Below, one piece after another: positions 5,066 to 32,229 of a DNA stretch of 40,033 nt. Each line of letters begins with the position of its first letter. The first letter of the stretch is position 1. Under the pieces are notes generated by a model. That model ran no database searches. It was not told where the DNA came from and saw nothing but the letters and a program-made list of their open reading frames with translations. The position numbers and the translations under genes are program-made. Origin of the DNA: a virus; UHGV virus genome UHGV-0235137; one strand, 5' to 3'.

Positions 5066-6667
5066 ATGGACTTAAATGCTGTTAAGCAGAAGCGAGTGGA
5101 AGATGTTAGGAAAGTCCTAGCTGGAGAGTTGGGGCTTTCTGATGAAGTAAAAGAAATTATCAAATCATTCGGTAAAGACCCCTCTAAATTCCTTCCAACT
5201 CAAATTCTGACTTTATTAAGATACACACCAGACCAAGTTAGACTTATCTTCAAATTGATGACTGATAAGAACTATGTAGCCCCTCAGCCGGGTTCTCAAG
5301 AGGTCTTTTTAAATACTAATGCTGATTTGGTTCTCTATGGTGGTGCTGCTGGTGCTGGTAAGACGGCTGCATTGTTAATGGACTCTTTAAGGTTTATTGA
5401 TGACCCTAACTATAACGCTGTCTATTTCCGTCGAAACACAACACAGTTACAAGGTGGTTTGTGGCCTGCTGCAAAGAAACTATTTGGTAAGTTTGGTGGG
5501 GTTCCTCACGAGCAGAAGATGACTATCACATTCCCTTCTGGGGCAACTATCAAGTTTACCTACCTAGAACTTGAAAAGCACGCTGAAGGTCATCAGGGTA
5601 TTGAATACTCAGCTATTTACTTTGACGAAGGTACGCACTTCTCTGCTTCACAGATTTCATACCTACAGACTCGTCTACGTTCTGGGGCTGAAGGTGATTC
5701 ATACATGAAGATTTCTATGAACCCAGACAGAGACCACTTTATTTACGATTGGGTAGAACCATTCTTAGATGAAGAAGGTTACCCAGACCCTGAAAAGTGT
5801 GGTCGTATTCGTTGGTATGTAATGAATGATGGTGTTATGGTTTCTGATTGGGAGAGGGACAAGATTCTTGAAATGTTTCCTCTTGAGATTCCTCAAACAT
5901 ATACATTCATCTCTGGTACGATTGATGATAACCCAATTCTTGACTTCTTAGAACCAAAGTATCGCGGTAAGTTGGAAAACAACACTCCTGTAAACGTTGC
6001 AAGACTTCGTTTCGGTAACTGGAAGGCTCGTGCAGAAGGTTCAAACTATTGGCAAAGACAATGGTGTGAGATTGTTGATTCACTCCCAGAAGATGTATTC
6101 GATGTCAGAGCATGGGACTTAGCAGCAACTTTACCATCTGAGATTAACCCTAATCCAGACTGGACAGCAGGTGTTAAGATGGGTAAATCTAAAAAAGACG
6201 GTTGCTATTATATCATTGATGTAGTAAGATTTAGAGATAGACCCTCTGGAGTCGAAACACAAATTAATTTGACTGCTGAAAGTGACGGTAAGCGAACTGG
6301 TATTTTTATCCCTCAAGACCCAGGCGCTGCTGGTAAATCCTACGCGACATCCCTCATCAGGAAACTTGCCGAGAAAGGCTATCGTGCAAGAGCTAAACCA
6401 ACAAATAAAGATAAAGTTACCCGCTTTGCGGGATTTTCTGCTGCTTCTGAAGCTGGACTTGTAAAAGTCTTGAGAGGTAGCTGGAATGAAGCTTACTTTC
6501 AAGAGCTTGAAGGCTTTTGTGGTGATGGCAAAACTAAAGATGACCAAGTGGATGCTACCAGTGATGCTTTCAACAGTCTTAACGAAGTTAAATTATTCAA
6601 GCCACCATCAATGGGTGCTCACACAGACTTAGTGAGAGGAAACCCATATGAGGGGCTTAGACGTTGA
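5066..6667 (+). CDS. terminase large subunit
   Basis: Walker A GGAAGAGKT, Walker B-like YFDEG, size about 530 aa, followed by portal-sized gene; start moved to the ATG after a GGAGG RBS. Confidence 0.85.
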   Translation: MDLNAVKQKRVEDVRKVLAGELGLSDEVKEIIKSFGKDPSKFLPTQILTLLRYTPDQVRLIFKLMTDKNYVAPQPGSQEVFLNTNADLVLYGGAAGAGKTAALLMDSLRFIDDPNYNAVYFRRNTTQLQGGLWPAAKKLFGKFGGVPHEQKMTITFPSGATIKFTYLELEKHAEGHQGIEYSAIYFDEGTHFSASQISYLQTRLRSGAEGDSYMKISMNPDRDHFIYDWVEPFLDEEGYPDPEKCGRIRWYVMNDGVMVSDWERDKILEMFPLEIPQTYTFISGTIDDNPILDFLEPKYRGKLENNTPVNVARLRFGNWKARAEGSNYWQRQWCEIVDSLPEDVFDVRAWDLAATLPSEINPNPDWTAGVKMGKSKKDGCYYIIDVVRFRDRPSGVETQINLTAESDGKRTGIFIPQDPGAAGKSYATSLIRKLAEKGYRARAKPTNKDKVTRFAGFSAASEAGLVKVLRGSWNEAYFQELEGFCGDGKTKDDQVDATSDAFNSLNEVKLFKPPSMGAHTDLVRGNPYEGLRR

Positions 6668-30908: not shown

Positions 30909-31208
30909 TTAATCTGCCAGCCTTAAATTAAAATTAACACCAAATTTTTCGCATACTTCCAACATAAACTCAAGAGAGACATTACCAGTGAGATTGATTA
31001 TGTTGGATACACGAGCCTGAGAGATACCACAAATTTTAGCAACTTGCTCTTGAGAAAGACCTCTGGATTTAATCTCTCTCTTAAAACGATGTGCAACGAA
31101 ATCTCTCATTTCGTCTACATCCATTGGACAAATATAACTCTCCATTTCAGCCTCTCTGTCAGCCTCCCAATCATCTTGTGGAGCATAAGGGTCAAAAGTC
31201 TCATTCAT
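30909..31208 (-). CDS. helix-turn-helix DNA-binding protein (XRE/Cro-like regulator)
   Basis: LSQEQVAKICGISQARVSNIIN HTH segment; ATG at 31208 overlaps the upstream stop in ATGAATGA; ORF-track TTG extension to 31238 rejected. Confidence 0.65.
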   Translation of the reverse strand: MNETFDPYAPQDDWEADREAEMESYICPMDVDEMRDFVAHRFKREIKSRGLSQEQVAKICGISQARVSNIINLTGNVSLEFMLEVCEKFGVNFNLRLAD

Positions 31209-31413
31209 CTTTCTTCTTCCGTTTACGTGAAGTGTCAATCAATGAATCTATGTTTGTAGCCCTAACCTTTTCACGTTCATCGTTAAGATAATCGTCAAGA
31301 ACTTTTTCAATCTGTGAATCATCTTGACAGATAACTGTAAAGACTGTAAAGCCGTCTGTATCGTCAATTATCTTACCATAGCCGCTTCTGGGATGTAACT
31401 TTTTAAGAGCCAT
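31201..31413 (-). CDS. hypothetical small basic protein
   Basis: 70-aa ORF translationally coupled to the HTH gene. Confidence 0.5.
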   Translation of the reverse strand: MALKKLHPRSGYGKIIDDTDGFTVFTVICQDDSQIEKVLDDYLNDEREKVRATNIDSLIDTSRKRKKKDE

Positions 31414-31414
31414 A

Positions 31415-31723
31415 TCAAATACCTGTGCAGCTTCTGTTTTCTAAGAAATACTCAACACCATACATAGCTTTTTGCATCAAATCTTCTTTAAACTGAATAC
31501 GATGATTAAGCATAGCCTGTACATCAATATCATCATGGTGCTTCTCTTTAATATTTGCAGATTGCAGGAAATACTCTGCAAGAACACGATACTGATAGTC
31601 AGTTACCTTGTCAGTCATCTCTGTTAAAGACTCTTCAGAGATTGGTTTAAGTAACTCACCATTAGCCAGAGCAACACCTTTAACAATCTGGCAAGTGTCT
31701 TCTGGAACACCTGATAAGTCCAC
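31415..31723 (-). CDS. hypothetical protein (start uncertain; ORF track uses GTG)
   Basis: 102-aa ORF; an alternative overlapping 57-aa ATG ORF with a better RBS exists at 31624-31797. Confidence 0.4.
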   Translation of the reverse strand: MDLSGVPEDTCQIVKGVALANGELLKPISEESLTEMTDKVTDYQYRVLAEYFLQSANIKEKHHDDIDVQAMLNHRIQFKEDLMQKAMYGVEYFLENRSCTGI

Positions 31724-31841
31724 ATTTGGGAGTTCTGTTGCATTGACTGTAAATTCATTGACATAACCATTGCAGCAGCTAATAAAATCTTTTTCATAAT
31801 GACCTCAAAGCTATATTAAATTTTGTATTACATTGGATATA

Positions 31842-31871
31842 AAAATAAGCTATAACACCTGACTTGTCAAC
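31842..31871 (-). promoter_or_regulatory. possible leftward sigma70-type promoter overlapped by an 11-bp inverted repeat (operator-like)
   Basis: minus-strand TTGACA (plus 31865-31870), about 17-bp spacer, TATTTT; inverted repeat aataagctata (31844-31854) / tatagcttatt (31878-31888). Confidence 0.35.
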
Positions 31872-32229
31872 AGATTTTATAGCTTATTTTGGCAGATTTT
31901 TTATAAGGATACTGCCATCCTTCCATACCAGACCACACCATGCAAAACCAGACTTCACATCACCCTACCGTGCAATACATCACTTAAAAACCCTCTTAGA
32001 AGACTCTTAAGTGATGCTGGTGAGTACACGTTGGTTTATGCTGCTCAGTATACTCACCAAATTTTCTATGTCAACAACTTTATATAAAAGCCCTGATAGC
32101 TATATGTGTTACAAAACAAAAGATTGTGAACAAAACACCCATTGCAAAGGATGTGTTCAAAAGTTTACTTGTGATGTAAGACAATACAAAGACAACTAAT
32201 GCAAACAGAATGATTGTGCTTAACATAGT

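Follow-up and report, generated by a model that had tools for sequence, protein, structure and literature searches.

The non-coding locus behind the ligase gene of the virus genome UHGV-0235137 is interpreted, with a probability of roughly 0.6, as a promoter (P1) followed by one orphan vrRNA gene belonging to a VIPR system of type II (SUSP1 clade), with a conserved hairpin (hairpin 1) as processing element of the transcript and the whole arrangement as the scar of a cassette deletion. It adds an orphan locus to VIPR, a recently reported system. VIPR, for Viral Interference Programmable Repeat, consists of the proteins Vipr and Vap and the RNA vrRNA, with SUSP1 as model phage (bioRxiv, 25 June 2026, 10.64898/2026.04.26.720920). 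Vipr is a minimal ancestral RAMP and Vap an accessory protein with predicted DNA binding. The vrRNA of ~100 nt comprises 9-16 YNNGG repeats and an invariant 3' tail, which is pseudoknotted in the SUSP1 clade; its NN dinucleotides pair with double-stranded DNA following a '1-nt skip' rule, and competing phages are repressed. In SUSP1, expression of a vrRNA of ~100 nt that co-purifies with Vipr was shown, and in other VIPR types hammerhead ribozymes are located between the vrRNAs (10.64898/2026.04.26.720920).

In the proposed mechanism, host sigma-70 would start an RNA from P1 at ~32040 on the minus strand. This RNA would run through a leader of ~25 nt, hairpin 1, ten GGY-NN pentamers and the pseudoknotted tail, and the NN dinucleotides would form a programmable, non-contiguous guide. 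Hairpin 1 would define the vrRNA ends, plausibly as substrate of RNase III or another nuclease, and would be the functional equivalent of the hammerhead ribozymes or tRNA-like minihelices between the vrRNAs of other VIPR clades. In relatives that keep vipr and vap, Vipr would bind such RNAs and repress the DNA of competing phages, a function established for SUSP1 (10.64898/2026.04.26.720920).

Genomic setting of the locus

The window, i.e. the whole stretch of 40,033 nucleotides analysed, derives from a Felix O1-like myovirus of the genus Felixounavirus, and 259 phage records matched a 1.3-kb query around the locus with 80-98% identity. The first guess, made from the ligase and a 909-aa polymerase, had been a T7-like early terminator/RNase III region after the ligase gene and was rejected with the assignment to Felixounavirus. 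The transcribed strand at the locus is the minus strand, on which all surrounding genes lie (Table 1). The earlier note had placed two inverted repeats in a non-coding region of 430 bp. Both repeats were borne out far above chance (I7, 31978-32016; I19, 32018-32059) and range, together with a third repeat (I3), among the strongest local inverted repeats of the 40-kb window. The non-coding region proved shorter, as its ligase-proximal part is a conserved ORF.

Table 1 Features of the locus in the window
Feature	Position	Strand	Remarks
Ligase gene	33333-32230	-	
Conserved 48-aa hydrophobic ORF	32080-32226	-	phrog_22006, E = 4e-30; between ligase gene and P1; optional among relatives
Non-coding stretch, ~282 bp	31798-32079		region holding P1, hairpins, tract and tail
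P1, -35 hexamer TTGACA	32069-32074	-	conserved AAGTTG just before
P1, -10 hexamer TATACT	32047-32052	-	
Hairpin 2, inverted repeat GGTGAGTA...TACTCACC	32019-32058	-	spans P1; -14.5 kcal/mol, z = -3.8
Hairpin 1, CAUCACUUAAGAGUCUUC-UAA-GAGGGUUUUUAAGUGAUG	31978-32016	-	18-bp stem, four G·U pairs, UAA loop; 5' boundary of vrRNA
vrRNA guide tract, 10 GGY-NN pentamers	31925-31974	-	in-register run to 31984 = 12 units
vrRNA 3' tail, H-type pseudoknot	31889-31924	-	S1 31922-31919 with 31908-31905; S2 31917-31912 with 31895-31890
Hairpin 3 (I3), ATAAGCTATA...TATAGCTTAT then TTTTT	31842-31890	-	-14.6 kcal/mol, z = -4.8
P2, promoter-like site inside hairpin 3	TTGACA 31870-31865, 17-nt spacer, TATTTT 31847-31842	-	upstream of next gene
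Signal-peptide protein gene	31415-31797	-	starts at 31797; next gene after the non-coding stretch

Several observations were made in the vicinity of the locus and elsewhere in these genomes. The signal-peptide gene of the window carries a 1-nt deletion near 31749, where TTTACCAGTC is changed to TTTA-CAGTC; in Ro111lw and further relatives the gene is intact and encodes 127 aa. As a result, the window gene is divided into two ORFs of 57 and 102 aa, which reflects a pseudogene or else a sequencing error within a CC run. Felix O1-type phages carry homing endonucleases, and upstream of the ligase gene of one relative Rfam gave a match to a group I intron that is weak and below threshold (L005, 699-789; 24 bits, E = 0.006). 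A cluster of 19 tRNA genes occupies positions 94-4621 of the window on the plus strand; according to the Bas63 PhageMaP preprint, some of the tRNAs might serve as Y-RNA-like partners of a Ro60-like protein, which is encoded beside the cluster in this group of phages.

The pentamer tract, its tail and the vipr-vap cassette

The features absent from the earlier note are a near-consensus promoter over hairpin 2 and, after hairpin 1, a tract of pentamers and a pseudoknot. The window tract reads TGCAC GGTAG GGTGA TGTGA AGTCT GGTTT TGCAT GGTGT GGTCT GGTAT and is the sole run of at least five units in the 40 kb on both strands; the maximum in 200 shuffles was seven. The pentamers have the form (G>T>A)-G-(T>C)-N-N. 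Among 78 unique tracts with 917 units, position 2 was always G, position 3 always T or C and positions 4-5 were free, with a modal tract length of 11-12 units. All tracts start at a fixed distance of 3 nt after hairpin 1, while their length and sequence vary even between near-identical phages. The window tract thereby has the properties of the vrRNA repeat, namely YNNGG units in a number of 9-16, a conserved GGY and a hypervariable NN.

The tracts end in a 36-nt module that occurs in four sequence classes and folds into two interleaved helices with an A-rich loop 3. In the covariation analysis of this pseudoknot 90.5% of the cells were paired and nine of the twelve pairs had changed on both sides; S1 was 100% paired, and slid registers reached 26-42%. 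In the window, the segment 31924-31889 (~36-40 nt) corresponds to the structured vrRNA tail of ~40 nt that is pseudoknotted in the SUSP1 clade. The relatives contain one to five head-tract-tail units per locus, each 130-150 nt long with a hypervariable centre. The head-tract-tail signature was absent from ~1 Mb of unrelated viral DNA, and in the complete genome of a relative it was found at one locus only. A search of IMG/VR with a loose core pattern returned mostly chance matches, with tracts on Felixounavirus contigs only. Rfam at gathering and at permissive thresholds gave no family for the window region or for loci with several units.

For comparison, 29 related loci were anchored on the ligase protein and thus chosen independently of the hairpins. 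In 18 of them the units surround a cassette of two genes encoding proteins of 200 and 146 aa (~4030-5080 in loci L002-L030); within one genus, Moogle has the cassette and Michonne is devoid of it. Neither protein had a match in Pfam or PADLOC. A RAMP/Cas7-like fold was confirmed for the 200-aa protein, encoded by vipr. The second gene, vap, overlaps the vipr stop codon in relatives as well as in distant loci and encodes 146-176 aa with the common motif GxGYRVVxP; three close homologues of Vap were retrieved. A type of protein that polymerises along RNA at a fixed step is hence linked to an RNA of 5-nt periodicity. In SUSP1 (locus L017) one tract lies upstream and three lie downstream of the genes, exactly as in the sRNA sequencing of the preprint (10.64898/2026.04.26.720920), and the sequence-based reconstruction is independently confirmed by experiment in this close relative. 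Other candidates had been considered for the locus. A type III toxin-antitoxin system (ToxIN/AbiQ) was rejected, since the long units are not exact repeats of ~35 nt and the 200-aa protein has a RAMP fold and neither a Pfam nor a PADLOC match. TRAP-like ring binding, a two-tetrad G-quadruplex, an R-loop replication origin and a sponge for CCA ends or anti-SD sequences were superseded by the Cas7/RAMP fold and the VIPR preprint.

Phages of the genera Felixounavirus, Suspvirus and Mooglevirus share 97-100% identity in the 200-aa protein and only 85-90% in the ligase. The sequence comparison suggests that the vipr-vap module spread horizontally and recently. Distant homologues of the 200-aa protein with 37-40% identity were found on unrelated viral contigs, in a Rhodococcus prophage, on a Xanthomonadaceae contig and in a metagenomic phage. 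There, GGY-NN tracts flank the gene on the gene strand, in the form GGCNN in GC-rich genomes. In a Rhodococcus globerulus prophage (L291, 5137-5650), and also in L287 (3640-3700), vrRNA-like GGCNN tracts are separated by a conserved tRNA-like acceptor/T-arm minihelix, GGTCCGG...GGCGGTTCGATTCCGCC GCCGGAC, which ARAGORN reported as 'tRNA-???'. Judged by its sequence, this minihelix may punctuate vrRNA arrays in an RNase P/Z-type manner; tRNA-like punctuation is missing from the architectures that the preprint lists (10.64898/2026.04.26.720920).

In tblastn searches of the window and of Ro111lw, its closest complete genome, neither vipr nor vap was detected. A complete VIPR system has an adjacent vipr and a downstream vap; with both absent, the vrRNA of the window is an orphan. 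Orphan loci are common, accounting for 11 of the 26 unit-bearing loci sampled (~40%). A comparison of tracts revealed no clear signal of decay in orphan vrRNAs (GG 0.73 vs 0.78; G2 and Y3 identical). The window unit combines the head that normally follows P1 with the type of tail that normally precedes P2 and hairpin 3. Most simply, the single unit between P1 and P2 is probably the scar of a vipr-vap deletion through recombination of the first and the last unit. Decoded under the rule of a 1-nt skip, the guide of the window reads AC AG GA GA CT TT AT GT CT AT. A search of the window with up to three mismatches gave no target, and the IMG/VR and GTDB genomes contained no full match; matches at nine of the ten positions were at chance level, without biological relevance and in an unrelated recombinase gene. 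The window vrRNA may be functionless without vipr. We consider it unlikely that orphan vrRNAs are kept for a role independent of an own vipr, either as decoys that soak up the Vipr of a competing phage or satellite, similar to RNA anti-CRISPRs, or as guides that borrow Vipr in trans during co-infection. If so, hairpin 1 would be a host-nuclease processing signal that frees the RNA from a need for phage proteins. The text of the VIPR preprint describes neither the hairpins nor orphan vrRNAs, nor P1 with the repeat built into it (10.64898/2026.04.26.720920), and none of these elements is mentioned in the genome papers on Felix O1 and UAB_Phi87 or in the Bas63 PhageMaP preprint.

Promoter P1 and the hairpins

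In the sigma-70 consensus scan, P1 (TTGACA-16-TATACT) matched the consensus at 11 of 12 positions with a 16-nt spacer, and hexamers, spacing and conservation are those of a sigma-70 promoter. The window contains no exact TTGACA-N15-18-TATAMT besides P1, and in the complete genome of a relative with 97.7% identity P1 is the sole such site between genes. With the pattern TTGACA-N16-18-TAYAMT, P1 (Ro111lw 44276) was again the only near-perfect intergenic site of a complete Felixounavirus genome. A promoter at this position is not listed in the paper on the Felix O1 genome. From the usual distance of 6-8 nt to the -10 hexamer, the transcription start is predicted at ~32042-32039, i.e. ~32040. P1 and the whole of hairpin 2, including its loop, are almost invariant in 27 of the 29 ligase-anchored loci, and P1 is also present in VIPR-less outgroups.

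The 5' arm of hairpin 2 lies in the P1 spacer and reaches up to the first T of the -10 hexamer, and the 3' arm covers ~+13 to +22. Because the 5' arm is located upstream of the predicted start, hairpin 2 would form solely in transcripts that read through from the ligase operon. With one extra flanking pair its folding energy reaches -17.1 kcal/mol (z = -4.7). Three divergent Ounavirinae (L018-L020) have a P1-type promoter directly upstream of the signal-peptide gene, and at the equivalent position they carry repeats of unrelated sequence, AAACATAGCAAGT/ACTTGCTATGTTT, TAGTGGGT/ACCCACTA and CCTGACGGGT/ACCCGTCAGG, with -15 to -24 kcal/mol. Four lineages therefore have complementary arms of different sequence at the same promoter position, with an arm spacing of 24-34 nt. 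The preservation of complementarity while sequence and spacing change speaks for nucleic-acid pairing rather than for a protein operator. Hairpin-2-like repeats accompany 13 of 114 other phage promoters with the same -35/-10 pattern, mostly in Ounavirinae, at a null rate of 3%; an explanation as generic property of strong promoters was rejected, as such repeats are rare among these 114. Hairpin 2 would mark, stabilise or process the read-through transcript and set it apart from P1-initiated RNA, but any role in read-through RNA is speculative. At an unrelated phage promoter (L161, IMG/VR 3300021400_003551, 5275-5309), the 5' arm in the spacer, TCCTCCTGAT, complements the downstream Shine-Dalgarno region ATCAGGAGGA. 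Possibly, this ribosome-binding site is masked only in read-through transcripts, which might be a general logic for hairpin arms embedded in promoters.

The P2 site at the other end of the locus is annotated as promoter in phage ASO1A. By its sequence, hairpin 3 looks like a combined end-of-vrRNA hairpin and promoter of the next gene. The motif TGTTGACA, the -35 context of P2 as well as of P1, could be a recombination site.

RNA folding, which the earlier note had proposed as a check, supported both of its hairpins. As minus-strand RNA, hairpin 1 reached -17.5 kcal/mol (z = -6.3; none of 200 shuffles folded as well), compared with -8.6 kcal/mol for the plus strand, and such a strand difference is the mark of an RNA structure transcribed from the minus strand. 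The stem had been described as 10 bp long; the hairpin itself stood, but folded as RNA the stem extends to the length given in Table 1 (18-19 bp predicted). Hairpin 1 is nearly invariant, with 36 copies in 26 loci and one to three copies per locus. In the covariation analysis 91.8% of the cells were paired and both partners had changed in six pairs (none of 500 shuffles did as well), mostly between two paralogue classes and thus in few independent events. The lower stems of the paralogous head hairpins H1a, H1b and H1c differ and nevertheless all pair, with conservation of G·U and U·G pairs, whereas the top (GUCUUY-loop-RAGGGU) is conserved in sequence across the paralogues. A head-type hairpin (H1a, H1b, H1c or hairpin 3) stands before every tract and after every tail. 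In the window, as in the complete genome of a relative, hairpin 1 occurs at this locus only.

We give an even chance to hairpin 1 being a punctuation or processing element, possibly via RNase III. Tract and tail together amount to ~90-100 nt and thus to the reported vrRNA size (10.64898/2026.04.26.720920), so that the 39-nt hairpin 1 should fall outside the mature RNA; by this size arithmetic, a position outside the ~100-nt mature vrRNA is most likely. Hammerhead ribozymes or tRNA-like minihelices take the same position elsewhere, and this common theme of cleavage between guides favours a processing role. With 18 bp, the stem is at the short end of the range of RNase III substrates, for which it is a candidate. 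Of the three functions that had been offered for the hairpins, i.e. termination, RNA processing and regulator binding, processing is the best supported, by inference, for hairpin 1. The earlier reading held with respect to processing, failed with respect to termination, and had recognised neither the promoter nor the guide-RNA gene.

An intrinsic terminator has a G+C-rich stem followed by a U-run. No U-run follows the stem of hairpin 1 or hairpin 2, and the consensus scan called neither, which makes a canonical terminator unlikely. In a related proposal, hairpin 1 acts as an attenuator or a leaky intrinsic terminator, which would end the RNA of the ligase operon and of the preceding vrRNA and set the ratio of vrRNA to downstream RNA. 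TransTermHP and WebGeSTer label hairpin 1 as rho-independent terminator in phage ASO1A, all head variants retain a GGGU(Y)UUUU run, and each vrRNA tail is followed by a head-type hairpin. This U-run, however, lies inside the 3' arm, where it is paired to the 5' arm, and the stem preceding it contributes -1.2 kcal/mol, compared with -9.1 kcal/mol for a genuine terminator in the same loci of relatives. Moreover, in SUSP1 the arrangement P1-hairpin 2-hairpin 1 precedes the expressed vrRNA1 and vipr (10.64898/2026.04.26.720920), and a leaky terminator is quite improbable in our estimate. A small but real chance is left to hairpin 1 as a retained 5' handle, by which Vipr or Vap assembly along the tract would be nucleated or phased in the manner of a crRNA repeat handle. 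The short fixed distance between hairpin and tract, the register of the pentamers that continues into the 3' arm and the sequence-conserved top of the hairpin would fit such a handle. The vrRNA as reported (~100 nt or <100 nt, consisting of repeats and 3' tail; 10.64898/2026.04.26.720920) is, on the other hand, too small to include a 39-nt hairpin, H1c follows a tail and precedes vipr without any tract downstream, and in other clades the equivalent position is occupied by ribozymes (10.64898/2026.04.26.720920) or tRNA-like elements.

The hairpins might also matter chiefly as DNA, namely as PeSL-like promoter/stem-loop cassettes and recombination sites for the gain and loss of vipr-vap, with no RNA role of their own. 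The cassette lies between copies of hairpin 1, at whose edges the BLAST breakpoints of relatives are clustered; in addition, the cassette is far more conserved than the ligase, the window unit joins a first-unit head to a last-unit tail, and TGTTGACA is common to P1 and P2. Recombination at repeats is, however, an expected by-product that is compatible with an RNA function, and the conserved G·U pairs, together with the compensatory changes, suggest that RNA pairing is under selection, which renders an exclusive DNA role very doubtful. Binding of a regulator to the DNA, as had been suggested in the earlier note, is unlikely for both hairpins, as the arms covary with preservation of complementarity, rely on G·U pairs and, in hairpin 2, vary in their spacing. 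In its most specific form, hairpin 2 would be the operator of a dimeric DNA-binding regulator of P1, e.g. the HTH protein encoded at 30909-31238. The inverted repeat indeed overlaps the -10 hexamer, and the gene of the HTH_3 protein is located four genes downstream. The half-sites are, however, approximately three helical turns apart, and arms that are wholly different between lineages and yet complementary, at a spacing from 24 to 34 nt, are typical of nucleic-acid pairing rather than of protein recognition; an operator is thus highly improbable. Processing of the vrRNA precursor at hairpin 1 is the reading we favour.

Significance and comparison with known systems

Felix O1-type phages are widely used for typing and therapy. 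They commonly carry VIPR guide-RNA genes, and 'terminators' and 'repeat regions' annotated at this locus are to be re-labelled as vrRNA genes. The promoter of vrRNA1 looks like the strongest host-type promoter of the genome and has an unusual built-in inverted repeat, and the behaviour of the vipr-vap-vrRNA module is that of a cassette with recent mobility, from which solo units stay behind. Every vrRNA of the clade is bounded by a hairpin that is conserved and covaries; this hairpin provides a testable handle on how vrRNA ends arise and goes undescribed in the text of the preprint, which presents VIPR as a minimal form of RNA-guided DNA recognition and proposes it to be older than CRISPR (10.64898/2026.04.26.720920).

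Hairpin 1 resembles RNase III hairpins such as the R sites of the T7 early mRNA and the stems flanking rRNAs in being a stem of ~18-19 bp with wobble pairs between functional segments of a polycistronic phage RNA. It is shorter than the classic ~20-22 bp, is devoid of an internal loop of the T7 R1.1 type and is a putative substrate. The PeSL cassettes of T4-type phages likewise are repeated promoter/stem-loop motifs that flank small accessory modules and coincide with indel breakpoints of close relatives (PMC2839356, PMC4122927). PeSLs are composites of a terminator and an early promoter distributed over many hyperplastic regions, whereas the repeats described here are confined to a single locus as parts of guide-RNA genes. 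The TRAP binding site of the Bacillus trp leader shares the succession of a 5' stem-loop and ~11 triplets with 2-nt spacers, one triplet per protein subunit. It differs in the triplet (G/UAG instead of GGY) and in the protein, a beta-sandwich ring instead of a RAMP fold, and in our locus the variable dinucleotides carry information.

Class 1 CRISPR systems also combine a protein of RAMP/Cas7 fold with an RNA of fixed nucleotide periodicity, cap a variable guide with a structured element and separate the guides of a precursor by hairpins; orphan CRISPR arrays are guide loci without effector genes. The period is 5 nt in the present locus, with a conserved GGY and a variable part of 2 nt, in contrast to 6 nt with a contiguous spacer in Class 1 CRISPR. 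CRISPR repeats, Cas6, Cas5 and Cas11 are absent here, and the guide is not acquired by Cas1-Cas2. The closest counterpart is the VIPR system of SUSP1. The window differs from it in the lack of vipr and vap, in the presence of one vrRNA only and in that no target was found. It agrees with the type II/SUSP1 clade in GGY-NN (YNNGG) repeats within the range of 9-16 and in a pseudoknotted 3' tail of ~36-40 nt. The window unit is located at the genomic position of vrRNA1 with the same promoter and head hairpin upstream, and relatives of the window carry a near-identical vipr-vap cassette.
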